From Perkinsus olseni (lineage: Eukaryota), in the NCBI GenBank assembly GCA_013115125.1, contig JABANN010000202.1, positions 1 to 53,329 of the forward strand: a stretch of DNA of 53,329 bases, given 5' to 3'. Within the stretch, counting starts at the first letter, position 1. The number at the start of each line of letters is the position of its first letter. Below are positions 10,801 through 53,329 of this stretch, piece by piece. A program made the position numbers and the translations under genes. The notes beneath the pieces were generated by a model. It had not been told where the DNA came from. It did not search any database and saw only the letters and a program-made list of their open reading frames with translations.

Positions 10801-11586
10801 GGACGTATAATACAAGGTTATCTTCAATATATACAATTACCTCAGCATGATCAACAACAAAAGAGTAGCGATAGCGTTGCCCTTGAATGGCTTGTGCATG
10901 CAATACGGTAGAGTAGAGTATTCCTATCAGATGCCGTTGATGATGATACTGGAGTTGATGCTGATATCGTAGCAGCAGCATTGGACTGTCTATCTGCTGT
11001 CGCTGAGGGTTTACACGCATCACAGATATTGAGTGGTAGTATTAGCATGATCATCATCATGTAGTAGGGTGGTGATGATGTTGGTTATTTTGGTTGTTCT
11101 CAGGTGTTGTACCAATAGTTTTACGTCTTATACAATCAACAACAGTGAGATCGGTTAGTATACCATCACAAGTTACTCAACCTGTCTATGCATTATTAGG
11201 CGATTTATCGAGGTAACAACTGGTATCCCCTATTACTAATCAGGTTCAACGCCTTAGGTATTGTATGATTCTAGTAGCACCACATCTATCAATGGTATTA
11301 CCAGCCAGTATTCAGTACATGGATAATGCATCTTACAGTACATGCAATAATGCTATATGGGCTATTGGAGAGATCTGTGTCGCAATAGCTGCTAACAATG
11401 ATGTCAAAGATTTCGATATCAAACCGTAATGATGATTATGATGAGTCAGTAATGCTGCCATTGATGTATTGTTGAAGGTACGCTAATGTGATATCGAGTA
11501 AACTAACATCAATATTGGAGACTGGGCACCTACAACGACCACTGTTGATACAGAATGCTGCCATCACTTTTGGAAGACTAGCTTTG

Positions 11587-19540: not shown

Positions 19541-21685
19541 TTACTGATCTTCCGACTTGTACTTTGGAGGGTCAAGTCGAGGGCCAACCAAAGCATACCG
19601 CTTCCTTAGAGGCTTCGCCAACTTCACTTTCAACCTGATAAACCGCCATCACCAGTCATGGATACCTAGAATGGATAAGCACCTTTCGGAGAAGTAGTCG
19701 ATAAGATCTTCACTGGTGAGATATTGCTCAGAAGAAACCTGATGATGAGGAGGCCCTCTGGGATGAAGAGCAGCAACAACTGACCTTAGACGTGCCAGCT
19801 ACACATATCGCCAAATCCTTACTCATATAACCAGCTTCAACGGATTCAATACACGCATCTTCGAGGGCCTGAGCATCACCGATCGGAATCATCATTAATT
19901 GAGGTCTCACCTGAGCGAAGTGTTTGAGCCTGTTATTATTATCAAGGATGGCTCGTTGGTTGAGAGCCCGCGACCAGGCAAATATCGATGCTATTGGATT
20001 GGTTGAAGTCTTCTCTCCCCTCTGAGAATAAATATGAGGAGGCAGCCAGCAGCAGCATCCGCGCCTAACCTGGTACGCTCTGAAATGTCTTGTAACAGTT
20101 CCATGAGCAGCTTCTGACAAAACTGTCTTACCATCCGGGCAGACCAAGATAGACGTCATCAACCCCAGTGAGCCGTATCTAAATATGGCCGATCTGGGAG
20201 TCGAACCCGGGACCGCCGAATGGCTGGTTAGCGGTGATATAACTACCCTTGAGCGACAATGTCAGACTGAACATCTCCGTCATAGTTCTTACATGCCCAC
20301 ACAAAACCACCTTTGGATTTAATGGCCTACAGAATAAAGTTGAGCACATGCCAGCCCGAACTACCACCCTGAGCCCTACTACCTGTGCCACCATATCATC
20401 AATTAAACGATGTTCGTACCACAACCCGGCCTTCTCGAATTGATCCCTAAACATTATAGTCATGACGGATGATGAATCATATCCACATCATCATTGCCCT
20501 ACTTGTATTCATTATCATATAATTGTTGGAAGACGTCTTTAAAGACACCATCATAAACCTTCAGAATAGTGTTCTTAGAGGAGAAGTAGAGAGGCATGCC
20601 CTACACCAACAAAAACTAACATAACTACTATCGGTTCATAGAGATGGTGATGATGACCCTTGTCATTACTACCTGACCCAAGGCGTATGTGAAACAACAC
20701 CTAGCGAAGCTTTCGATGGACCTCTTCGTGTTGTACCTGAAGGAGTATGATGGGTGATAAGATGCGTGTATGCACCCCCATTACATCCCCATAACGACAC
20801 CACCCTCATCCTCCTCCTTGAATTCGAATAACCTCACAGTCTTACCTTCAGACCCGTCATTGGGATGGAATACCAAGTCAACCGTCCCTAACGGATAGGG
20901 AGGTCCCGGGTTCGATTCCTGGCTACACCACCTACCCGGGGTATTATCAGTTTGGAATTGTTCACACTTATATTGATCAGCATGAGCATGACGGCCGATA
21001 ACAATAGGGTACTCCCAGCCAGGGACATATCTAAGAAGTGTCCTCGATGTGAATCGAACCCCAGACCTTTCGATTATTACCGTGGTATATTACGTATTAT
21101 TATCGGAGCCCTGAAGACTGTGCCATCCAAGATGTTACGAATGGTCCCATTGGGGCTCTTCCACATCTTCTTCAACTTGAACTCCTCAACTCGGGCTGCA
21201 TCGGGTGTGATAGTGGCGCATTTAACACCGACATTATACCTGTATAAGTAACACAAGCATACACGTGCGAATGAGGATGAGGAGGAGGAGGACTACTGGA
21301 GGATAGCCTTCGCAGCATCTATTGTTATCTCATCATTAGTTCTATCTCTATTCTCGAGTGATAGATCATAATAATCAATATCCATATCCAAGAATGGGAA
21401 TATCTATTGGAAGGTTCATCATCGTCTCTGCTACCGTTTCCGTGGCGATGTTATTATTACTAATTTATCCTTGATCATTTGCCAGACTATCCTGGTCATC
21501 TCATCGCCATCCAACTCTACTATCGGATTATCTACTTTGATACGTTCATACTCCACCTAATAGAATGATGATGATGATGATGATGATGGCGGTAACCACC
21601 GCCTAAGGCTCCTGTATGATCAATACCCGTGTAAGAAGCTTCCATTCGGTTTTATCGGGCATGATATCATTAGATGCACAACGCC

Positions 21686-22020: not shown

Positions 22021-23008
22021 TTAAGTCCGGTAGGGGACAGTGCCCATCCGGGTGGTGTTCTTCTTGTTGTTATGAATTAATACCCTATCATCATCGGATG
22101 TTCGCTCATTCCGACAACATACGAATACTCTCCACCACCGATGAGGACTGTCAACACTCGTCGGTGGTGTTGTACCACTCCCTTCCTGAAATAGTATTAG
22201 GATTATCGATACTGCCAGACGGGGGATACTGCAAGGATACTCAGTCATACTCAAGCATCATACGCAGATGATAGTATTCAACTGTGCATGCCGACTGAGG
22301 ATTGATTTCTATTACCACAGCTCCACCCAGACGCTCATCGTGAGTGAACTACTGAGTGAGGTGTAGTTGATGGCTGTACGGTGCAATATTCACTGATTTG
22401 AACTCCGAGTTATAAGTTCATCACGACTCGGTGATGATTGCTGCCGATAAGAGGTCGAAGATGCCAACACAACTTCTTGCACGATGCTAAGGGGTGTTTG
22501 GCCCTGCACTACTGGCCACTCGTGTGGGCGAAGAGGTCTCCTTTACCAGCGAAGTCTATGATACCCCTCATCATCCCTTGTGGCACATGCCTCTAGTCTT
22601 CAAGAGATTCACCGTTGAACGGTTACCACGAGTGCAACAATTTGAAAACACTTTCCATGTAAGATATCGGGTATGTTGGACAGAGCGACGAGCAAGAAGT
22701 CCGATACCCCTCCACCACACTGTATGGTTATCGGGAAATCCGAGACTAGCAAGACGGATGTGAATGGACCATCAGCCCCGGATATTGATACTTCTAACGA
22801 CGCTTGCATGATACTCCCTTATCATACCCCCCAGTATTACCGTTGTCTTTGCCATTGTTACTCGTCGACTATGGCACACTGGTGTTGGTATATGGACAGT
22901 ATGCAGACTCTCACAAGAGGCCAATTGTAACCTTATCCGAGGTAGTGGTATTGAGCTGGAGGCTTGCTGCTTAGTAGTAGTAGTATCATGGGAAGGGTAC
23001 TTGGTCAT
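22021..23008 (-). pseudogene. Possible decayed intronless gene
   Basis: Protein-like minus-strand segments in shifting frames, broken by stops, with no intron-like repeats. No family recognised. Confidence 0.3.
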
Positions 23009-23161
23009 ATAATAATCAAGAAACTGTGGAGGATCGTATACACCTTGATACCAACAAAATAAATAACCTACAACGGGGAGATGAGAAAAAGTTTAATGCT
23101 ATTTAACGAGTAGGAACCAGATAGTAATGAATGGTGGCAATTGTAGTAGTTTCTGAATACA

Positions 23162-27034: not shown

Positions 27035-29448
27035 TCACATTATACTACAGGCATTAGGCTGTTGTGAACCTGATAATGATGTCATCATTTCTGTAATGTA
27101 TCCTCCAACATACTGGTCACCTCCAGGAGGCTTCGCTCCGCCACACATCTGCATGATTTCCGATATGTATTGCTGTTGTTTCATTGACGATTCCATAAAC
27201 CTGTTAAAATGACATGAGCCGGGTTCGAACCGAGGATCTATCGGGGTGAATGTACTTCATGTCCCCTTGAAGGGTGGGTGAATGCATCATCCCCGCTATT
27301 GTTAAATCCTCTCCAGTCAAACCCTTGCCACTATCTTCTCTCTCTATAGCAATTGATGCTACACCTTGGGCGAATGGTAATGCATATTGCGCATCGAAAA
27401 CCTCCTCAGGGTTCTCCTCTGACTTCATCATAGTCTTTATCAACCCCAAGCATGCTGTCATACAACTCTGCATGGCTACTACCTGATAATACCACCTACC
27501 CTTCCAACTACACATGGTTTATGCTGCTTACTTGGGATGCTGTAATATTTTTGACTCTCTTCATAACACTAGGTGGAGGTGGTGGTGGTGGCATCTGGCC
27601 TTGTGCTGCTATCATCATCACCTGTTGTTGGAGTACATGTATAATGGAATGATATCATAACTGTAGATGCTGACTACCTGTAGATAGGCTGCTAGATCAC
27701 AACTGGACTTGATCCAAATATTGTGAATCTTGTCGTTATCCTTATACCGTCCATATAAGTCGCCGAGCTCGAGTGGGTTCAATGCAGCTGACAACAGCAG
27801 CAGCAGCAGCAGCAGCAGCATCGGTATCGGTATCGGTATCGGTATCGGTATCACCACCGAGCTTACGATGATAGCGTGAGGCATCCTTCATGGCTTTGGA
27901 GTTCTCCTTGGTATGTTTGACAAACTCCCTGTATGCCGTCTAACACCAGGTCATCATCATCATCATCATCATCCAACAATCACCCTCACTACTACCACCA
28001 CTACCTTGATGCTGATCTTGTGGTGATCAGGCGTCCCCTTAGAAGAGAATAACATGTCATAAAGCTTCGCCCACAACTTCCGAGTGCTTGTATTCTGCTC
28101 GTAAAGTAACTCCATCATCTTCTCAAATTCATCTTCGAGTAACTAAGGTATCGTTCCTATCGAGTACTAGTGCCTGTATGCTGTCCCACTACCAATGGTC
28201 GGCAGTACTCATGCAACTTAGCCATAGTATGAGCCAACATCTCCGCCTCCTGCAAGTTGATGATACACATAAGGCGATAATCACTCTCATCATAATCCTC
28301 ACCTGTTGATAAGCCTTATCATCTTCGAGCTGCTTCTCCATGCGCTGAACTGCCATCTCTAAGTCATCAGCATCAATATGAAACTCAGAATAAACCTTTA
28401 AAGTAACCTAGACAGGTTATCGATAATGTATCACCAATATACCGTTTGTTGTTGTTGTTATTACATGAACCTCAGCGGCAGCCTCCACCACTTTGGGTAG
28501 CATCTCATAGCGCTCAGTTTGCGGTATCTTCTTGAAGGTCGCCACAAGCCTCAAGAACCTGTAGTAAGATTGCTGCTGCTGCTGTTGGCTGAGTGATGAT
28601 GCTGCTGTCTGGACCACCATTACGTTTTATTCATGAATTTATGTATGTTGATGACCTTCTTCCGATCAATACTATCAGCCACCGATTTAGTAGCATGAAC
28701 TGGCGGTACACTAATACCCCCTACGATGATAGACAATAACTAGACGATAGTAGTATTGAGTAGTGCTACTACCTTGCTGTGCTAACATCATCCTCTCACC
28801 AGCTTTATTAACCTCATCATCATCGTACCTGATGCCAAGTATGATGAAGGTTGAAGCGGTGCAGAAGTAGTAAGTACATTACTTCATAGCTAGTGATTGA
28901 ATATCCCTATCATTGATACCCCTCTCTTCTGCTGGGTCCTTCCCTAATAATAATCATCCTATCAACAGCAGCAGCAGCAGCTTGGCAACAGAGGACTACA
29001 TTGTCCAAGATCCAATAGCATGTTGTATAGGTCTTTGAATGTCAATGCCTCGTAACCACCTCCCTTCTTTATTAACTCCCTCGCGAAGTCAGAGATACGC
29101 TTTCGGGAATTAATCTGATGATCATGATGATGATGAGTAGACCATGTACGATACCCAGTATTATCATTACATGATAATCAGCCACCTCATTGAGTAGTTT
29201 TAGGAAATCATCACGATTATTAATAGCATCAGCACCAGTAGTGGTAGGAGCAGGGGGAGGAGTGGTATCATCAAGGGTCTCGGCAACATGGAGGGCACCA
29301 AGCGAGTCGGGTATAATGCCCAAGCCTACTGTACCGTATCTAAAGGTGTCCCGTGTAAGATACAAATAAGGTTGGCCACGACTGATGTAGTGATGTAGAA
29401 TGTTATTATCACTTCTTCATTCTGGCTTGGAATGCTTCAGTTGCATTC
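27035..29448 (-). CDS. Multi-exon helical hypothetical protein ending in a CaaX box (CSIM*)
   Basis: Spliced MNATEAFQARMKK/YGTVGLG...FLRLVATFKKIPQTERYEMLPKVVEAAAEVH...QGDMK/FMESSMKQQQYISEIMQMCGG...QQPNACSIM*. Confidence 0.7.
27201..27255 (-). other. Intron containing tRNA 3'-half-like sequence (sense)
   Basis: GTACATTCACC-CCGAT-AGATC-CTCGG-TTCGAAC-CCGGC-TCATGTC-A-TTTT-AACAG. Confidence 0.7.
27795..27852. repeat. Compound intronic repeat (CAG)n + (ATCGGT)n
   Basis: Seen directly; fills most of a minus-strand intron. Confidence 0.85.
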
Positions 29449-29455
29449 ATCGACG

Positions 29456-29468
29456 ATTGTTGTTGTTT

Positions 29469-29538
<70 letters not shown>
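29456..29538. repeat. (TTG)n microsatellite just upstream of the minus-strand ATG
   Basis: Seen directly. Confidence 0.95.
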
Positions 29539-29830
29539 GCCGAGGTGTTTACTGTAGGAGCCGCTTTCCGCTGCGTATTGGCATGTGATGACGATGATGA
29601 AGTCATTATCGAAACAACAACAACAAACTGTGCAGCAGAGCAAAGTCGTACAACCGCCCCCATTACGATAACTAATACCAACTTCTCCCCAAACCCTACC
29701 CGAACGATTCCCCTCATGGACATGAGTTTAACGCAGTTAATCCATGATGAAGTTCACCAGGGTACCGCAACGAGATGATCAGGGACCGGGGACTGCAGTA
29801 AGGTATGCTGATTATTATTGTGTTAATCCT

Positions 29831-31481: not shown

Positions 31482-32559
31482 ATGATAAGACCTGAGCAAC
31501 GCCATCCGACAATCATAATCACAATCTTCATCATCATAGTATCATTACTTCCAACAGCAGCCCACACCCCAAGGTTGGAGGTTGGAGCTGCGCCGTCGTC
31601 TGTTGGGACTAGGGAGACCGACAACCCGAAGAATGGAGATGGAGTATTATATCCCGACTCTGATGATGAGGATGATGACGATTATGGTACACTAGATGGG
31701 TATTACTTCAGTGCTAATGGTTCATTACCGAAGTCCTTCACTGCAAGTGGGGTCAAACGAGTAACGATGAATGATGCTGTTGAGAACGCCAATCCACCAA
31801 TGATGAGCATCACCTTCGACATGATTAATAATGATAAGACCAGCAGCCATCCCAACCGAATCACGACTGGTCAACTCATCGTCAATCCTGATGGCAGTAT
31901 CAACCATCAGTGCTTCACCTTCGATACTTTTAGTATGATATCCAAACCAAGAGCATTTTTGAGGACATTGGCTGATATCGCGGTCAATGAGGAAGGAAGC
32001 AGCAACAACAAGGCATTGACACTTAAAGACGTTAAAATGTGCCTTCACCCAAGATATGGTCACCCGAGTACCATCATGTTTGGTAAAGATATCACAGTTG
32101 AACTCAGTCGACGTAGTGAGAGTACCTCACGGATGCCTGATATCATTGGATACTATCAGGGTGTGTCAGAGCATGGCCTCCAAATACAAATGATAGTAGA
32201 GAAGAAAGTTGATGCCGGTTTACTGCAATGCAAGCTGAGAATGGGTAAAGATAGAGATGGTATTATAGAACACACGAAGCCTTTAGTGATGGTTAAGGAG
32301 GAGTCTATGATGATGAGTAAGGGGCAGCATCATAAACCATGTTACAGTATAGATTTCAATATGGCTCTTGATGTGGTATTATTGATGGAGCTGGGCGTCG
32401 TCGCAGATCAATTCTTCCTCTGTTTCCGCCAATCCTTTGCTCTATTCAAATTTGGGGTGCCCTCTGATGATGACTATTTCGAAGTAGTATTGTCACGGTG
32501 GAAGTCAGCGGGACAGAACCGCGGCATAATCCACGGCCATCATCATTATCATCTTCGTA

Positions 32560-32611
<52 letters not shown>

Positions 32612-34232
32612 GAAGCATCAGTTGTACATTGGTTACATCCCCCCACAATATCTCAAGTACCTTACGAATTTGGAAGTGGTTATTATCGCAAGTTTAGATT
32701 CCAGTGAGACAAGTGTAGTGGTGGGGTTCTCAAAGGGCAATGCTCATCATTATATAGAGTCACAACACCTTAGTCTATACAAGCATCGTGCTCACTTCCT
32801 AAGGGACAGCTTGCCTCAAGATCTCCCTCTACGGAAGCTTATTGCTGATGTCAACTTGGGGGTGGTACCCTCGCGCAGGGTGCTTACCATTTTTACGAAG
32901 CCTACCTTGCGGATTGTACTTGGAAAAGTACAGTTTCCCCTATTCAAAAGTATTATCGGTACCACCAATGATACTTTTATGCCTCAGCCGCAGTCGTCTG
33001 CGTCTGCCTCTCCTCCTCCCGCTGCTCACCCTCAATCATCATCATCATCAGTCTCATCATCTCACGGGCGAGCAGCAGCCTCAGGTAAAAGGGCATCAGC
33101 ATCATATGTGAAGCCTGAAGCGAAGCGCCGGAAGATGGTGGTGGGAGGGAAGAAGTCCTCAGAGAAGGAAGTGACCAGACGTCCAGCAGACGGGTCTGCT
33201 GCTGCTGCTACTAGTGGTGTTGGGGATGCTCCTGCCATGATGACCAAATCCATCATCACACTCGGTGTGTACGTTAACGAGAAGTGGACTATGGGGGAAA
33301 TGGATGATCGTATTATCATTGAGGTCTCCACTCGACAGTCATTTATAGGGATTACGCTCGAATTACAGGAGCTCAGGCCCGGAGGCAACGGGGAACCTCG
33401 CGCAATACTTCAAGATGATGGCAGTTTCAAATGGCTGGAAACGAGTTACTCAATAAAGAAAACAGCCTTCGTCCCACTGATAGCATACATTCAGGAAGGT
33501 TGGTTAAATCATTTCTATCTTAAAACAGCAGCCCTACCCGACAAGGATAGACGTTATGTACTTTCAACCTTGGCCCGGATAGCTGTCATTAGAGGTATAC
33601 CTGTCGATGGGTCTATTCTTATTGAAGCATACGTTAGGGGAGCACGGTTGGCCTCTCCTGATGCTTTATGTCTCAAATTCAGCAGCAGCAACCGACCATG
33701 AACGACCGCGGGGTTCCATGGAAATATCATCTTTGCATGGACCGGAAACATCAAAGAAGACGACCAGAAATATCCTAGGTTGACGCCAGAAGATGTTGGG
33801 GATCCTGATTATATCTGTTATGCCACTGAAAGTCCCTCTCAAGGGTTCAATTCTATCCACATGCGGGTGTATGGGACTGAACAACAACAGCAACAGCAAC
33901 AGTCACCAGCAGCAGCAGCGTCTGTTGAATTCTTCTTTGAGTTTTCCCTCCCCATCATCCTCAAACCTCCATGCCGCGTACCATTAAAGAAAGTTGATGA
34001 TTCTGATGGACTACTTTTGGATACTACCAGGCTGAATGAGACTGAGTTGGAGGAAGTGTCTGTCCAATTCATACAGGCTGGGCTTTACGCTGGTCTTAAC
34101 GCTGGTCGGATGCGTCCAATATTCTTGAAGGATGTCAGACTTCTTCTACTCGACGACGATAATCAATGGACTCTGAGGCTCGCAAGGGACTGTACCTTCA
34201 CTCTCAAGCCCTGTAATCCCAACCAGCTTTAA
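31482..34232 (+). CDS. Intronless secreted multi-domain protein; one in-frame TGA at 33699-33701 separates 739 aa from a 176-aa in-frame continuation
   Basis: Signal-peptide-like IIITIFIIIVSLLPTAA; about 5 diverged G-x-Y-initiated domains; ORFs 31482 and 33780 are in the same frame with no other stop between them. Confidence 0.75.
32559..32610. repeat. (GAT)n coding poly-Asp tract
   Basis: Seen directly inside the 739-aa ORF. Confidence 0.9.
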
Positions 34233-34411: not shown

Positions 34412-38960
<4,549 letters not shown>

Positions 38961-44293: not shown

Positions 44294-44628
44294 TAATCAA
44301 CAGGTGGCTCCGTCGTTGTCTTGTCGTGAATACCAATGCACTGCTCAGGTTTCCGATAGGTTCGAGAGGTTATTGGTGAATCGATTGTAGGAGGCGAACA
44401 GAGCCCTACCCTATAGTTTACCAGAAGTTAGCTGGGGAGTGGTATTATCGAAGACACGAGTGCGCAGTTTCTGTTATTGCTCCTATTGAGTATCGGTTCC
44501 AATAATCGTTCGATCTGCTATTAGTTTCGAGTAATGGTCGTCGTCATAATACATTGTTCGAAGCCCTAGTAATGATGTGGTGTTGATAACTGTGGGGATA
44601 CTGTAGGTCGAGTATATCCATCTTCATC

Positions 44629-45629
44629 ATGGTCATCATCATCAAGGAGGTTCCAGCCACCACCGCCAGCACCGCCAGCAGGGGTATCACTAAAGGCTTC
44701 CTCTCGGGTGACGCTCGTCTGTATGGCGATGAGGGCAGCCCTGAGGGTGCGGTCACGGAGGAACAGAGAAGGAGAAGAGATGAGTAGTCCGACGACGATC
44801 GGGTCATGATGATAGAAGAGGGGACCGCTCGGTAGATACGAGCTGAATTGTAAAAGTAATGATGCCATGCATGAGGTGCTACACAAGAGAGATCGTATAG
44901 TTGACGGCTATGATGGGAAGTATCCCGACAGAGCGCCTTGGTAGTCCTCACCCCCGCAGGGAGTCTACTGTCTTATCGTGTAGGTACACCCCCGAGTATC
45001 CTAAGAATTGTGAATATAACAACCCGCAGTGTGTGATGGATCCGCTGCAGTCTAGCCAAAGTACTGAGGCCCATCAGAGATTACTAGTGCATTCTAAGAG
45101 GTGGAGAGATATCCTCGATGTGAGATGCCCTCCCGAGTCGCTGCCATCACTCCTGCTGCTGTCGGCAGGGTACCTCTGGCCTAGTGGAAGTACGGCTCTC
45201 GTACTCGGGTATTCGAGACAGCGACATCGGTGTTCTGATGGACGTCCTCGGGGAACGTCATAATAACACCTGTACCTTCATAGACCTCAGCTCGAATGAC
45301 ATTATGGACGCTGGAGTAGGGCGGACAGCACCTGAGGAGGGCGGAGGAGCAGTGCTGCTGTGGGCGATAGATACAAGCGTTAGTGGGCCGGCTCAGCGAC
45401 AAGAAGGTGCTGCCAGCCTTAAACAAGTTGTGGTTATTTGGCAATAAGTTGACAGATCTTGGTGAGTACGGTGGATGCTGCTGTTACTACTAGGACAGTG
45501 TGGATTGTAGGACGGGTGATGCTGCTGCAAGGGCTCGGGGTTTTACGGAGAGAACTTCAATTAGAGGTCGATACTCCAACATGGATGATACCAAAAGATA
45601 CTTCCTCTACGGCAACACCATCGACATGA
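44629..45629 (+). CDS. Leucine-rich-repeat (RNI-like) protein, multi-exon
   Basis: LVEVRLSYSGIRDSD; FIDLSSNDIMDAG/IQAL; LNKLWLFGNKLTDLG. Confidence 0.7.
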
Positions 45630-45724
45630 TATCCAACTGGTTGTGAAGATCCTTTCTACTATACCGGTGTCGGGTTGTGTGTGGAGGCAGCGGTCACTTC
45701 GAATGAGAGGGTAGTTGATCCAAG

Positions 45725-48198
45725 ATGGTGGAAGCTTCCTCGTCATCATCAACTTCACTCGAGGATGAGGGCGCCCGTCTAAGTACGATACAGTCGAGCA
45801 TTTACTTCCAAAGTGTCCCTGCTCTGGATTGAACCGGTAGCTCTTCCTCTTCCCTTGTCAGGAGCATTGAGGGTGCGGGCTGTTGAGTCCAGGATGGCTG
45901 CTGCGTCAGGAGAAGAGGAGGACCCCCTGCCCAGCCGGAAGAGGCAACGTCTTGCAGGTAACTTTTGAATTTACTAAATTGTTGTACCGCGATAGACGAC
46001 TGGTCACTCAGCCAATCCTGATCACCATCCATCATCGTCCTCCTCGTCATCCTCTTCTGGACTGTCACCAGTGAAGATCGAGGATGAGTCTGGGCCTCAC
46101 CACCGGGAGGGAGAGCTTGCTCAGGACCCAGCAACCTCCTCCTCATCAACATCGAGCAGTGTAAGTTATGGTATGTCGTAGCAAAAGGACTGGTCTGTTC
46201 TCAGATCCCTGCTGCTGCTGCACCACCTTCCCAACCGGAGGCGGCTGTTGTTGATATCCTCGATTCTTCTGAAGATGAGGGGCCGGTGGACGTATTGGAG
46301 GTATCATCGGATTCTGACGATGATGAAGACGATGATGAGCTGGAAGCAGTAGTGGAAGGTAGTAGGGGACGATACCCGCTCAGTGCTCGGCGGCGGTTAG
46401 CCTATAATGCTGCTAGATCCCATTGAAGTAGACCTCCTCGATGATGAGGACTTCGAGGCTGGCGCAGCACCAATAGCGATCACGGAGGACGAGGCTAGCG
46501 AGGGGGGGCATCATAGCGATACTGACCACAATGATGTCGAAGATGATGATGTGGAGTTCGTAGGGGAGACCAGAGCAGCAGGAGCCAATTGGGGCTTGCG
46601 ATGGCAACATAGGAACAGGCTGGATAACAGCGCTTTGCGGGTAGTTTCCGCCACGCCATCCTCCCCTTCCTGCGCACTTTTCAGGCACTCGATCGTCATC
46701 TCGGCTTCAACCCTCCTGTCGGCATTCAAGACGTCTTCGGTGCCCCTCCTCCTCCTGTCGCCCATCCATTGCCTAATGCCTTCATCAATCGGGCGAACAG
46801 GGAGAGGCTCAGAGCTGGGGTGATATCTCGTGCAGTGCCAATGGATGTAGTGTAGATCATTTCAGGGCGTTAGGAGATATAACGGAGGTAACTTGCCTCA
46901 CTTGCGAGATCTTGATACTCCTCAACCGGGCGAGGGTGATCGGCCTCTTTATGCAGTTCGCTATCCCCGAGGGAACCGTCAACGATGTGAAGTAAGGCGC
47001 CATTGTCTCCTCGCTACACCCCAGCTCTGTTGTAGGTGTGCCGCCGCAACATATCACTCAACTCGACTGTTCTCTGTTACCGCAGTAGATTGATGGTCAA
47101 AACTGTTCACGTCGAATGCGCCCCCAATAGCCGAGCGATGTGAGGAGGATAACCCGTCTATCATCATCCACACTCATCAAGCGCAGGTACAGGCCAGCGG
47201 ATGTCGGAGTTGATGTTATCTTCCAGGACGCAGTTGCTAACGATGAAGCGGAAGTAGATCGGGTAGGCAATCGAAAGGATCCGGGTTCGATCCCCGGCCA
47301 GCAGATCTTTCAACAGGCCATTAGTACTTTGAGTCATCTGAGAAGCAGGAGGCTGATGGATCGTGAAGGGTAGGTTCGGAGGTGCAGGCCTGCTGCATGC
47401 TCACCCACCCCGCCTTGTTCAGGGAACTTCGACGTCGACGCAACAACAGACGCCAAAACGGCGGTGATCTCCTCTTGGATATTATGCGGATACCTCCACA
47501 ACAGCCGCAGCAGCCGCAGCCGCAGCCGCAGCCGCAGCCGGTGATGGAGGATCCTGGACGAGTGCTTGGCTTCGACAATGGCCTTCATGAGGGCCTACTG
47601 GTAGGGAAGCGTCCTTCTACGACCACCGATAATTATATGTTGCAGGCTTACAATTGGTTGTTGCCGGGAGCAGCGGCAGTGGCCGGGTTTGGGCCACCGG
47701 GGCACCATATTAACATGTACCACTCATCGGTGGCTGAAGCCCTCCTGCGCGGTCGGATGCCCCAACGTGGCCCCCCACCTCCATCGATACCAGCAGTACG
47801 AGGGCGAGGGGCTGCTCTTCGGTATTGCCATCTATCATTCTATCAGATGCTGAAAAAGTGTACGAGAGTTGTCATCAAGAAGGGCGACGTCGACCCCGAC
47901 ACGAATGCCTTCCGAGAATGTGAGGTTGGCTCAATCTCGGGTATCCCTTATGCTTGCTTCAGGTACGATTTGTTTGGAGCCTATGAAGACCAGACAGGCC
48001 GTTATTGAGTTGCCTTGCGAGCATCGGTGGGTTCTTGTAGGACGAGGTTGCATTTATGATGTTGTATTGGGAAGGTACCATCGAGGATGTATCGAGAAGT
48101 GGTTCAAGACGGCGTCCACGAAGGATCCGACCAATGTTCGATGCCCTCTGGACAAGAAGTCACTGTTTGAGATGCTTGGAGAGCCCGTCCCTGGCTAG
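45725..48198 (+). CDS. RING-H2 E3 ligase-like protein with acidic/SIM-like low-complexity region, multi-exon
   Basis: C/TICLEPMK...LPCEH/RYHRGCIEKW...CPLDK; VVDILDSSEDE, IEVDLLDDE, VEFVGE (SIM-like); basic RKRQRL. Confidence 0.75.
45811..45842 (-). other. tRNA-like fragment inside intron 45783-45861 (antisense)
   Basis: Minus strand AGCT-ACCGG-TTCAATC-CAGAG-CAGGGAC-A-CTTT. Confidence 0.45.
47263..47316 (+). other. Intron containing tRNA 3'-half-like sequence (sense)
   Basis: GTAGGCA-ATCGAA-AGGAT-CCGGG-TTCGATC-CCCGG-CCAGCAG-A-TCTTTCAACAG, with a perfect 5-bp T-stem. Confidence 0.8.
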
Positions 48199-48815
48199 CC
48201 TGTAGATTAGATATGATCATTGCACTATAATACTCGAGGAAGAACAACAACAACAACAATTATATAATTTAATAACGAAAGTCACACCGCGAAAGCGGCT
48301 TTGACGAGGCAGAGTTGAGTAGTCAAAAGGTTAGGACGATTGTGAGAGGGAAGGGTTTCGCCCGACTGAGGGAATGTGGGAAAAATACCAGCCGGTTGCA
48401 TCACAAATCATCCAGGTATACTTCTCATTGGTGTACGGGTGTTTGCCAAACATCCTTCATCCTTAGTGATCGGCGAAAGTCTCTAACCCATTGAGTTTTC
48501 TACGCCGTTTGCCACTCTCTTATCTCGGCCGACTGCCTCTGCGCGTGTCTGTATATCTTTCTGTAACTGCTGCCGTGAAGGCAGTTGATAAGTCGCTAAC
48601 TTGAAGTTGGGTTTGTGAGACGAGGCGAAGATATTGCAATCGCCTTTTGAACTGAATAACGCAACTGGTGGAATCCGGTACACACTTGAAGAAGCGCTGT
48701 GCGACTGAGCAGTAAATAACCAAAAAATCAGTACAGAAGTCCCAGAAAGTTGAAGGTGAATAGCCAATTTCACCGAGAGAATCTCGGAGTCTCTCTCGAA
48801 GCTAGCTTCACGCTG

Positions 48816-51800
48816 TCATGTTGATGCAGTAGAGGTGGTATAGTCTCCTCGCATGCGGCGGCCTTTCGGATCGAACAGGCAACCCGCCGTCACTTTCACT
48901 GGTATAATCAGCGGCTTGCCGTCCCCACCAATCGGGTGGACGCGAACGGTCCATTCCCCTGAGAGCAAACGATCCATTGGAGTGGCAGCCTTCGGTAGCG
49001 GTACCTTGTTCTATGTAGGACTTATCGATGATTGCTCTATCGTCCGAGATGAGGCACAGCCCGATCGGGCATTCCAAGACTGTTGAGTATCCGGCGGAGT
49101 TCAAGTAACTATACGCCACTGATGAGGGTCATCGAGAGGTTGTCACATACCCGACTAGTTTGTCGTTCCTATAGACTAGCTCAGCGCCGTGCCCCCACCA
49201 TGGCAGCTTTCCGAGGTCTACATCCGGGCACTGGGCCTGAAGTATTCAGTGAGGTCTTTCCAGCGAATCACGAAGCCCCACCTGCAGTGATAGGAGCCTT
49301 TTCTTCAGCCCTCCTGCCTCCTTTTCTCTGATCAAAGCTGCCTTGCCGATGAAGTCAACGTCTGAGGAGGAAGACCTCATTGGGGCGGCATCCCGCAGCC
49401 CCGCTTGTCTTTACCTGTTTTGAGCTTGCACGCAAAACCCAGGCCGACTTGTAGGACACTTTCCATCGGTGAGAAGTCATGACCATAGTGAAGGAAGCGC
49501 TTCTCCATCCTTAATGAGTCGAGCATGGCTAAGGAGCCCACCAACCGCTGTTCGGAAAAATGAATGGACGGCGGCAGACTAACGGCGCAACAACCCACAG
49601 GTCGGATGCTCCCTCCGGACATGATCCCGTCGAACAGCTTCTTGGCCCCACTCTTCTGAACGTGGAGCTCCAAGCCCAGCTCTCCGACATAACTGCGATG
49701 GAGCAGCATCAGCACAGGATGGGCGAGGGGGACTTACGAGACACGCAACGCTCGGCAGGAGACTCCTGCAAGCATCAGATCATCCTTCGCCCTCGACAGA
49801 GGTATGGTCGAATGGAGATCTATTCCGTCTCCGAGAGAGGATAACAGCTCGAAGCTCTTCGGACCCATTACCGATAGGACCTGAGGATGGGAGCTTGACG
49901 AGAGGCCTGACGTGTGGGTGCAGTAGTACGGCGATGTCGTCGGTGACATCATTGATAGTAACTCCCTTCATGCCTCGGCTTGCCGTTGCCCAGTGTAGAT
50001 GATCTTTTATCATCTCGGGCTGGTTGGAAGTGGTAGTAATATAAAAGCTGTCCTCTCCTAGTCGAGTGACGGTAAAGTCAGCGAGAATACCCCCGCGTTC
50101 GTTGGCCATGGCCGTGTAGACGATGGTGCCGATTGGTCGATCAATGTCAGCTGTACAGACCCATTGGAGGAGCTCTCCTGCGCCATCACCCTCGACCAAC
50201 AACTTGCCGAAAGACGACATGTCAATAACACCGACGTGCTGCCTAACAGCTCGGGCCTCTTCCTTCATAGCCTCGAACCACTCGGTCTTGCCCAGGCCCC
50301 AAGAATGAGGATATTCGTGGCGCGCGACATTGGTCGGGAGATAGTAAGCAGCCCTCTCCCAACCGAAGCCTTCAAAGAAGCGTGCACCATGGCGTTGATG
50401 CTCCTCATGAAGGGGCAGGAGGCGTCGATTGCGGCCACTGTGCAGCTGCATGTAGGGATAGTGGACTCCATACCTCGAGGGCTGACAGATGCTGACAACA
50501 TTCTCGATGGCTACTTACATGATGCCATACTCCTCTGCAGCCCTCCCCTCACACCAGTCAGGGTCCTCAGCGAGCGCTGGATACCAACGATTGACGTCAG
50601 CTGCTACGAAGTCGTCCTTGAAGCTCCTAGGATACCCATGGAGGATCCACTCGGCATTCGCAAGGCCAGCACCGGCGCCACATTGTATGCCCTGGGAATT
50701 GAACCCGGTACCTACGCCAGGGGATATGGGCTCCTCCTTCCCATGCATCGACGGTCCTCAGAGATGGTTACATATGTGGACATTATCAGTGCCAAGAAGC
50801 CTGCCCATGATTGGTGCGGTATCACAACTATGCGTGTCGGGGCCGTGTAACCAGCGCTTTATACCCACCTCCTGCAAGGCGGGAACGGTCTCCAAGGCAT
50901 CTGAGGTCGATGATGGGGACGAACAGGAGGCAGTGGCAGTACGCTCGAGCCACTCGCCGGCTTTGTCTATGCTCTCCGGGAAGACTTCATGCGATATATC
51001 TCGTGGCGCCTACGGGTGATGACGATACCACGACGGAGCTGGTGCTGGTAGATGCTACCGCTCCTGACGCGTTCCTTTCCTTCACATCTGGTGGGAAGTG
51101 GACCTCGGGGTTGGATTCGAAGACTCCAACCATAAAACCGCCAACCTCGAGAAGAATAGAGGGTGGGGTGTTGTAGTCACAAGAAGCCCTACCTCAGGCT
51201 TTAGGTAGAACTTGTTGAGGTAGTCTCGGACAACAGGCAACTTATTGGAAACCCCTTCAAGTCTATCAAACACCACATACCTGATCATGAGGGTCCTACA
51301 AGCAGTGGTGCCAGAAGCCTTACTGATGCGGCACAACGGCAGCTGGGAGGATGTCGCCTAGGCCCAGCTCCTTGACGATACCCTTACTCCATTGACCTGA
51401 CCTCACAATGACGACGCCCATCACTTGCTGCAGCCTGTCACCTGCGCAGATGATGATGTTATTCATGTGCACCAATGCCCCGCTGTCAAGTTCAACAGCA
51501 TGGGCTCGGCGACCATCCCTCACTATACGACGAATGGCCGTCCTCTCCAGTAGATGGGCCCCTTGGGCTCTCGCTCGAGCTGAGAAGGGGCCGTATTGTT
51601 GTTGCATCGCGGTGGTCGGTACTAGCCATCGCCATGGTAACGTCAGCTGGGTTGACGATACCGTCCTCTGAGGTGTATATACCACCATAAACTCCGGTAG
51701 TATCCAAATATGGATGGATCTGAGAATGGTGCGGTATTGGAGACAGCTGGGAAATACATAAATATCTTCCATCACGTGGTTGAGTGTATGAGAGGGGTAG

Positions 51801-52798: not shown

Positions 52799-53258
52799 CT
52801 AATCTTTAACGGTCATCATAAACCCCGAACTGATGCCAAATAATTCATTCAACAGTCCACATGTTGATGCTATCTGTGGTGCCCGGGTCGAGACTCTGCT
52901 CCAGTCCCAGTTGGACGAATGAGCAATCAAAAAACCCCACATGGGTTGTCTTAGTAACCATCGTAACAGCTGCATCGGATCGGCTATGATGTCAGGCAGA
53001 AGGATGAGGTCACGTAAAAATGAGAGGTAGAACGAAGCCAAGTCGACACGTCTACTGTCCTCATCGGACAACTTCAGAAGCCCGATGGCATTCAGAAAGA
53101 TAACATGATCGAGTTGTAGGACAGCCATTTTGATGAGATCGACGAGGGTATCTTTCTTGCCACTTCGACCTCGACGAGCAACTAAGATACCCAACTCTCT
53201 GCCGAACTTCACTACACTGAGACCGTTCTTCAAAGCAGCAGAGATAGCCTTGTAGCGA
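52799..53258 (-). CDS. Probable PEX11-family peroxisomal membrane protein (5' part outside window)
   Basis: YKAISAALKNGLSVVKFGR (amphipathic helix), LDHVIFLNAIGLL and C-terminal STCGLLNELFGI resemble the PEX11 pattern. Confidence 0.45.
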
Positions 53259-53328
<70 letters not shown>

Positions 53329-53329
53329 G
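53259..53329. repeat. (TTG)n microsatellite at window/contig end
   Basis: Seen directly. Confidence 0.95.

Follow-up and report, generated by a model that had tools for sequence, protein, structure and literature searches.

A short intron of Perkinsus olseni resembling the 3′ part of a tRNA, its four sibling introns, and a possible origin from tRNA copies

How does a spliceosomal intron of a protein-encoding gene come to look like the 3′ part of a transfer RNA (tRNA)? This question is raised by a 54-nucleotide (nt) segment, here called intron A, on contig JABANN010000202.1 (GenBank assembly GCA_013115125.1) of Perkinsus olseni, Perkinsus being an alveolate parasite of oysters and clams; the whole stretch that was analysed, positions 1 to 53,329 of the contig, is referred to as the window. 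Intron A is an ordinary, working U2-type GT..AG intron which is removed by the spliceosome to leave the in-frame junction …DR/AI… (the slash marking the joint), and its interior is a look-alike of part of a tRNA and not a tRNA gene, as it has no complete cloverleaf, paired acceptor stem or D arm. Four further introns of the window are co-extensive with a tRNA 3′ part, three of them (B, C and D) in an NADP-isocitrate dehydrogenase (NADP-IDH) gene and the fourth (E) at 27.2 kb, and this small family hints that tRNA copies can seed introns.

Splicing and tRNA likeness of intron A

The preliminary description of this locus had reported a stop-free intron of 54 nt that starts with GTAG and holds a perfect T arm, and the sequence, when read directly, is exactly as claimed: intron A (window positions 47263-47316, + strand) is GTAGGCAATCGAAAGGATCCGGGTTCGATCCCCGGCCAGCAGATCTTTCAACAG, which begins with GTAGGC and ends with AACAG. 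Its parts, and its setting within a RING-H2 finger gene, are the following.

45958..48198, + strand: the RING-H2 finger gene as far as RNA contigs cover it; 13 introns, 43-58 nt long
47187..47262, + strand: exon upstream of intron A, …YRPADVGVDVIFQDAVANDEAEVDR, the peptide of which is conserved in P. olseni and P. marinus proteins
47263..47316, + strand: intron A, GT..AG spliceosomal, eighth of the 13 introns in the stretch 45900-48300, on the basis of RNA contigs
47263..47268, + strand: donor site GTAGGC of intron A
47269..47280, + strand: AA, TCGAA and AGGAT, resembling respectively tRNA positions 37-38, the anticodon stem (3′ strand) and the variable loop
47281..47297, + strand: T-arm look-alike CCGGG-TTCGATC-CCCGG, a centroid hairpin in the predicted fold
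47298..47305, + strand: CCAGCAG (47298-47304) and discriminator A (47305), look-alike of the 3′ strand of the acceptor stem
47306..47316, + strand: T-rich tail TCTTTCAAC and acceptor AG, the 3′ end of intron A
47317..47369, + strand: exon downstream of intron A, AISTLSHLRSRRLMDREG, on the basis of RNA contigs and orthologous proteins

The proposal that this segment is truly spliced was confirmed by assembled RNA contigs of two runs, X7 (RNA-Seq) and X1 (the kind of which was guessed), both of which join 47262 to 47317 and skip exactly 54 nt; splicing rests on these contig runs (2/2), the raw-read runs X22 (1 read placed) and X24 (0 reads) being uninformative on 45900-48300. Across that stretch the contigs of X7 and X1 each contain 13 joints, all of them GT..AG, and once the 13 segments are removed, a single long open frame is left, with a RING-H2 finger at its end. 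The nearest relatives of this gene are proteins of P. olseni and P. marinus, and in three deposited proteins (two from P. olseni and one from P. marinus) the flanking peptides are joined without the 18 residues that correspond to intron A. The frame 47131-47373 passes through the intron stop-free, its length being a multiple of three, and a protein search with the read-through frame through intron A at similar lengths gave no match. Inspection by eye of the 13 introns of the RING gene revealed no clear shared branch-point motif.

Several side observations concern the same gene. At 47317-47319 the window reads DR/AI, and the P. olseni and P. marinus proteins carry V where the window has A. The annotated P. 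olseni orthologues begin with a leucine-rich-repeat part, which is encoded upstream (window 44590-45900, +), and the gene probably has more than 13 introns. A 48-nt intron (48027-48074) splits the RING finger between CEHR and YHRGC; like 20888-20935 and intron A it is among several stop-free introns with a length that is a multiple of three, and their read-through frames look coding.

The interior of intron A corresponds approximately to tRNA positions 37-73, comprising AA and TCGAA, then the variable loop, a T arm without mismatches, the acceptor strand of 7 nt and the discriminator A. CCGGG (47281-47285) and CCCGG (47293-47297) form 5/5 Watson-Crick pairs around the 7-nt loop TTCGATC (47286-47292), and AATCGAAAGG equals positions 37-46 of real Thr, Arg and Asn tRNAs and is also common to intron B. 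As read from the sequence, no strand complementary to CCAGCAG lies upstream of it. The segment GGTTCGATCCC at 47284-47294 fits the B-box consensus of RNA polymerase III (Pol III), and as such it is a predicted TFIIIC site only.

That intron A resembles the 3′ part of a tRNA, as had been claimed, was borne out both by enrichment over shuffled sequences and by a model built from real tRNAs. The window contains 2 T-arm hairpins (G-TTCRANN-C with a 5/5 stem) against 0.215 expected (maximum 3 in 200 shuffles) and 7 with a stem of at least 4/5 against 1.27 expected (maximum 5), while the T-loop core GGTTCGATCC, one mismatch being allowed, occurs 9 times against 2.53 expected. For the pattern AGGTCNNNGGTTCGANNCC, which spans the variable loop and T arm, 6 matches with no more than 2 mismatches were found against 0.21 expected (maximum 2 in 100 shuffles); five of these represent the whole short introns A-E, and the remaining one (50695-50713, −) is coding. 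This last match, with the same CCGGG stem, was rejected as due to chance, lying as it does in a coding exon (…GTGFNSQG…) that specifies a conserved part of a dimethylglycine-dehydrogenase-like protein, and a T-arm look-alike at 50282 (−) was set aside as coding. A further T-arm-like hairpin, with 4/5 pairs and the loop TTCAACG, is located at 11240-11256 (+).

A covariance model constructed from 15 real tRNAs of other organisms, when used to scan the window, ranked intron A first with 18.3 bits (rough E 0.0013, a score inflated by the choice of training tRNAs that is discussed below), and it gave intron C 14.8 bits (E 0.022) and intron D 13.2 bits (E 0.079); weaker matches of this model, such as 22974-23042, were discarded as noise. 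ARAGORN predicted no tRNA gene (0) in the whole window, Rfam at its gathering score found no match in the window, and no match (0) to motifs of the 5′ half (A box and D arm) was obtained there. In E-value mode, a search of the 221 bases around intron A with Rfam returned only a 17-nt hairpin under the transfer-messenger RNA (tmRNA) model (8.5 bits, E 8.5), and the only matches in this mode were those of the tmRNA model to the hairpins of A and D.

Four sibling introns and the anatomy of the family

The four sibling introns are all located on genes of the − strand.

21031..21080, − strand: intron B, 50 nt, NADP-IDH gene; sense, with a decayed T stem, beginning GTAATAA-TCGAA-AGGTC
20888..20935, − strand: intron D, 48 nt, NADP-IDH gene; the tRNA-like part lies on the + strand and is thus antisense, matching AGGTCNNNGGTTCGANNCC with 0 mismatches
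20179..20246, − strand: intron C, 68 nt, NADP-IDH gene; sense, extending further 5′ in tRNA-like sequence, with CTAAC 15 nt inside
27201..27255, − strand: intron E, 55 nt, unnamed gene; sense, predicted only

At 19.5-21.9 kb the window encodes an IDH protein for which an identical Perkinsus protein has been deposited, and the annotated model of the gene contains 15 introns, 14 of which were resolved as GT..AG. A tRNA-like part is present in 3/15 of these introns and in 1/13 introns of the RNA-covered stretch of the RING gene, two genes that were not sampled blind for such counts. Intron B is spliced out in the annotated protein P0003, and the alignment to IDH proteins of the PDB begins after it; intron D coincides with a 17-residue gap relative to PDB IDH and is spliced out in both P0003 and P0004. 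The acceptor of intron C is backed by P0004 and by the alignment to solved IDH structures, and it lies 15 nt beyond that of the deposited P0003, which makes use of a cryptic acceptor AG inside the T stem of C (intron 20194-20246) and thereby acquires five additional residues, SAIFR. For intron E, a GT..AG segment joins two open frames in the right phase, and the intron is recognized by the pattern and by nhmmer (E 1.2e-06, with a self-trained profile). Elsewhere in the annotated IDH model, a 46-nt gap within 19683-19778 (−), between P0003 residues 459 and 460, gave no GT..AG solution, and it may represent a non-canonical intron or an annotation error.

The five introns form a recognizable group, as an nhmmer profile of the five members retrieves these at E values of 1e-9 to 1e-6, the next match being at 0.022. 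When all 378 pairs among 28 introns were compared, the tRNA-like group and a CAT-repeat group obtained the top scores, and the tRNA-like introns are the only family that is not of low complexity. Five related introns are distributed over three genes, each element being co-extensive with its intron, an arrangement that is known from introners and is seen here on the small scale of one window. In each of them a TTCRANN loop with G53/C61 is preceded by a variable loop and followed by a 7-nt strand and a discriminator, in the spacing of a tRNA, which is common to all (5/5). The pentamer before the T stem resembles a variable loop in 5/5 introns (AGGTC in B and D, AGGAT in A, CGGTC in C and AGATC in E), and an A occupies the discriminator position exactly eight bases after the T stem, again in 5/5. 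Past the discriminator, all five tRNA-like parts are followed by 5-11, mostly T-rich, nucleotides and then by a splice site. Their 5′ extent varies, the distance between the tRNA-side 5′ end and the T loop being 42 nt in C and 23-27 nt in the other four, and four are in sense orientation and one (D) is antisense.

Other repeated sequence in the window was recorded as well. Trinucleotide repeats (TGT/CAA, GAT/ATC and CAG/CTG) are very abundant in both coding and non-coding DNA, for example at 1-70, 29458-29540, 32556-32613, 37280-37329 and 53252-53329, and they dominate a repeat search of the whole window. Two introns of different genes, 20327-20382 (−) and 46359-46416 (+), both begin with GTAGTAGGG and contain GCTCAG, and their pairwise score is not among the top ones.

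Weighing the origin of the introns

We infer that introns A-E most likely originated by insertion, and the idea that they descend from inserted, 5′-truncated tRNA copies which are now passengers is one to which we attach roughly even confidence. By this account, 5′-truncated copies of tRNAs or pre-tRNAs would enter exons, either as retrocopies (reverse transcription starting from the 3′ end) or as filler DNA at breaks, and only those copies that the spliceosome excises exactly would survive, giving rise to tRNA-derived, introner-like introns. The interior of intron A would then be a decayed tRNA 3′ part (approximately positions 37-73), to which a T-rich tail with the acceptor AG at its end is attached, and the tRNA-like part would at present be carried along as a passenger that has no role itself, the GT donor not being an anticodon. 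This reading draws on the splicing of A, the restored frame, the orthologues that are devoid of the 18 residues, the enrichment over shuffles and the whole-intron span of the members, which is indicated by IDH homology and annotated proteins for B, C and D and by frame logic for E; it also draws on the fixed 3′ end, the variable 5′ end, the occurrence of both orientations and the absence of 5′-half motifs. A more specific version, which we put forward only tentatively, is that the family was born from Pol III transcripts, 5′-truncated (pre-)tRNA copies having been inserted into coding exons in either orientation, with the tRNA and its T-rich trailer supplying or adjoining the splice signals: a D-loop sequence of the GGTAG type could serve as donor in C (possibly also in A), and the T-run with AG as acceptor. 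PMC3706591 describes more than 500 copies of five tRNA types in P. marinus, including 46 of Ile-ATT and 23 of Tyr-TAC, as well as transposons that target these amplified tRNA genes; tRNA sequence is thus exceptionally plentiful and changeable in that species, and such amplification makes abundant tRNA-derived DNA or RNA plausible. According to PMC3101222, most P. marinus introns are shorter than 100 bp.

A number of observations weigh against descent from inserted tRNA copies. Neither a target-site duplication nor a terminal inverted repeat was detected at the five introns, the longest junction repeats being 4-5 nt and the terminal matches 2-6/12, and the copies are only about 52% alike per column, their acceptor-like strands all being different. 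The family was found through the T-loop motif, so that conservation of this motif is partly a matter of ascertainment; similarly, the training tRNAs of the covariance model were picked by a motif from A and B, which inflates the scores of these two introns, and B (8.6 bits, E 3.5) and E (7.9 bits, E 6.5) nevertheless fall within the noise range of that model. Intron E is supported by frame logic and has neither RNA nor homology behind it. An exact 25-mer of intron A, covering the T arm and acceptor strand, had 0 matches in metagenome contigs, and the source tRNA was thus not identified in that collection. Finally, no certain conclusion on the genome as a whole can be drawn from five copies in a single window.

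The preliminary description had gone further in deriving intron A from the 3′ half of a tRNA-Tyr, the GTA anticodon of which had supplied the GT donor. In eukaryotes the identity of tRNA-Tyr resides in a C1-G72 pair with A73, and intron A does carry G72 and A73, as was claimed and as would suit such an origin; G72 is limited to A, however, with C72 in the four siblings (G72 in 1/5 copies), and C1 is absent. The intron also starts with GTAG, and P. marinus has 23 tRNA-Tyr-TAC genes according to PMC3706591. The anticodon part of the claim was not supported. Among the 15 aligned real tRNAs there are 9 with AATCGAAAGG, and in these the bases immediately preceding AA-TCGAA form the anticodon; in intron A this triplet is GGC, GTA being located three bases further 5′, at positions 31-33 rather than 34-36. 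Moreover, GTA is the usual start of introns here, being present in 9/13 introns of the RING gene and 11/14 resolved introns of the IDH gene (20/27), while GTAG starts 5/13 and 6/14 of these, respectively (11/27). The siblings, one of which is antisense, start at other positions of the tRNA: the GTAATAA with which B begins is, when read in register, a loop of the Ile type, the CTAAC loop of C is found 15 nt into the intron, and the donor of D comes from the complement of the bases that follow the discriminator. In the alignment to the real-tRNA model, the GTAG of both A and C is placed in the D-loop and not in the anticodon. As GTA is the usual intron start and the siblings start elsewhere, there is no need for the donor to derive from an anticodon, and the register speaks against such a derivation. 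When metagenome contigs were searched for AATCGAAAGG..GGGTTCGAT with a gap allowed, 97 loci were obtained, none of them from the host, so that the search fixes the register and not the source; ARAGORN placed a tRNA over the motif in 19/97 (Thr 8, Arg 6, Asn 3, Pro 1, Leu 1), and Tyr was found in 0/19, though this collection is not the host. The other 78/97 loci have no ARAGORN tRNA over the motif and mostly look like short interspersed nuclear elements (SINEs) derived from tRNAs. Many of these 78 belong to a few repeat families with tRNA-like heads, which come for the most part from a small number of host-associated samples. The register of the tRNA-Tyr derivation could be restored by a 3-base insertion; on this evidence we regard the derivation as quite improbable.

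The main rival to insertion into exons is that older introns were invaded by tRNA-derived repeats and later trimmed by deletions to the short length favoured by this genome, the insert remaining between the original splice sites, a history that we consider unlikely. It would accommodate the uniform shortness of introns in the IDH and RING genes (42-72 nt in 27 resolved cases), the lack of insertion hallmarks at the five introns, the conservation in P. marinus of exon sequence adjoining A and the generic nature of GTAG and GTA donors here; yet in 5/5 cases the tRNA-like part takes up almost the whole intron and stops 5-11 nt from one splice site, and independent trimming would have been needed five times over. 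Retention for a function, be it as a B-box TFIIIC site within genes transcribed by RNA polymerase II, as a splicing hairpin or as a source of small RNA, appears very improbable. All five copies share GGTTCGAnnC without variation, a sequence that fits the B-box consensus, and a DNA-binding site would tolerate the antisense copy D, but this invariance is largely due to the way in which the copies were found. Predicted folding energies of the five introns equal those of shuffles (z −0.22 to 0.94), the T stem of B is disrupted, and neither B nor E has the hairpin in its predicted fold; in addition, the tRNA-like part occurs in only 4/27 resolved introns of the two genes and so is not needed for splicing. 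Accidental resemblance in a GC-rich short intron might be suspected from the single Rfam hairpin at E 8.5, from the failure of ARAGORN to call a tRNA and from the equally good T-arm look-alike at 50695-50713 (−), which is plainly coding. Chance is nonetheless extremely improbable, seeing that none of the shuffles (0/100) reach the 6 pattern matches found against 0.21 expected, that CCGGGTTCGA occurs four times and that five matches coincide with whole introns.

Relation to known elements and significance

The nearest kind of element to this family is that of introners and introner-like elements, while its nearest sequence relatives are tRNA-derived SINEs. In introners, as described for Micromonas, Aureococcus, fungi, dinoflagellates and Amoebophrya, related sequences likewise constitute whole spliceosomal introns in unrelated genes and in both orientations; the Perkinsus copies differ in being tiny (48-68 nt), far more diverged and devoid of inverted or direct terminal repeats, their shared sequence is the 3′ part of a tRNA, and the family is known here from the sequence of one window. 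With tRNA-derived SINEs the introns have in common a tRNA-related sequence with a B box, and AATCGAAAGG..GGGTTCGAT is found in many SINE-like repeats of animal-associated metagenome contigs, but in a SINE a complete tRNA-like head, in which both the A and the B box are present, is followed by a body and a tail, whereas the introns hold the 3′ part only, have no A box and form a unit of 48-68 nt. The family accordingly displays neither transposon ends nor SINE architecture. A fixed 3′ end, a variable 5′ end, either orientation and the absence of transposon ends are also properties of 5′-truncated retrocopies and of tRNA pseudogene fragments captured at breaks as filler DNA, although the introns are without a tail of the retroposition type or a target duplication; that such fragments may become exact introns is what we infer, no described case having been found.

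A tRNA sequence in the intron of a protein-encoding gene, or a tRNA half on its own, is likewise encountered in nested, split and permuted tRNA genes, but here both the 5′ half and a cloverleaf are missing, the siblings have decayed stems, and nothing suggests joining into a tRNA. The Dada DNA transposons of P. marinus concern the same group of organisms and, according to PMC3706591, show that tRNA genes there are amplified and disrupted; these elements are there given as 4.7-11 kb in size, inserting at TAGCTC in the A box with 6-bp duplications, whereas the present introns start near the anticodon or D loop and are without ends of the Dada type. The portion of PMC7789003, on introners, that was available contains no mention of tRNA-like introners or of introners in Perkinsus, and a search of full-text literature brought up no paper that deals with tRNA-like introns or with Perkinsus introners.

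One consequence is practical, as in-frame stop-free introns (A, D and 48027-48074) and cryptic acceptors within the T stem (C) mislead gene prediction, as is evident from the deposited IDH protein with its five extra residues. The broader interest lies in the family and in the origin of introns, and not in intron A as a single ordinary intron. The source of new spliceosomal introns is a long-standing question, and the sources known to act on a large scale are transposon-like introners; introns that each consist of the 3′ part of a tRNA would mean that intron sequence can also come from a different kind of donor, and the lineage in which they occur is an alveolate one neighbouring the dinoflagellates, which are rich in introners. 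If this is true, introners would have an additional, new source, and tRNA amplification would lead directly to the gain of introns, with even conserved housekeeping genes like that for isocitrate dehydrogenase being affected.

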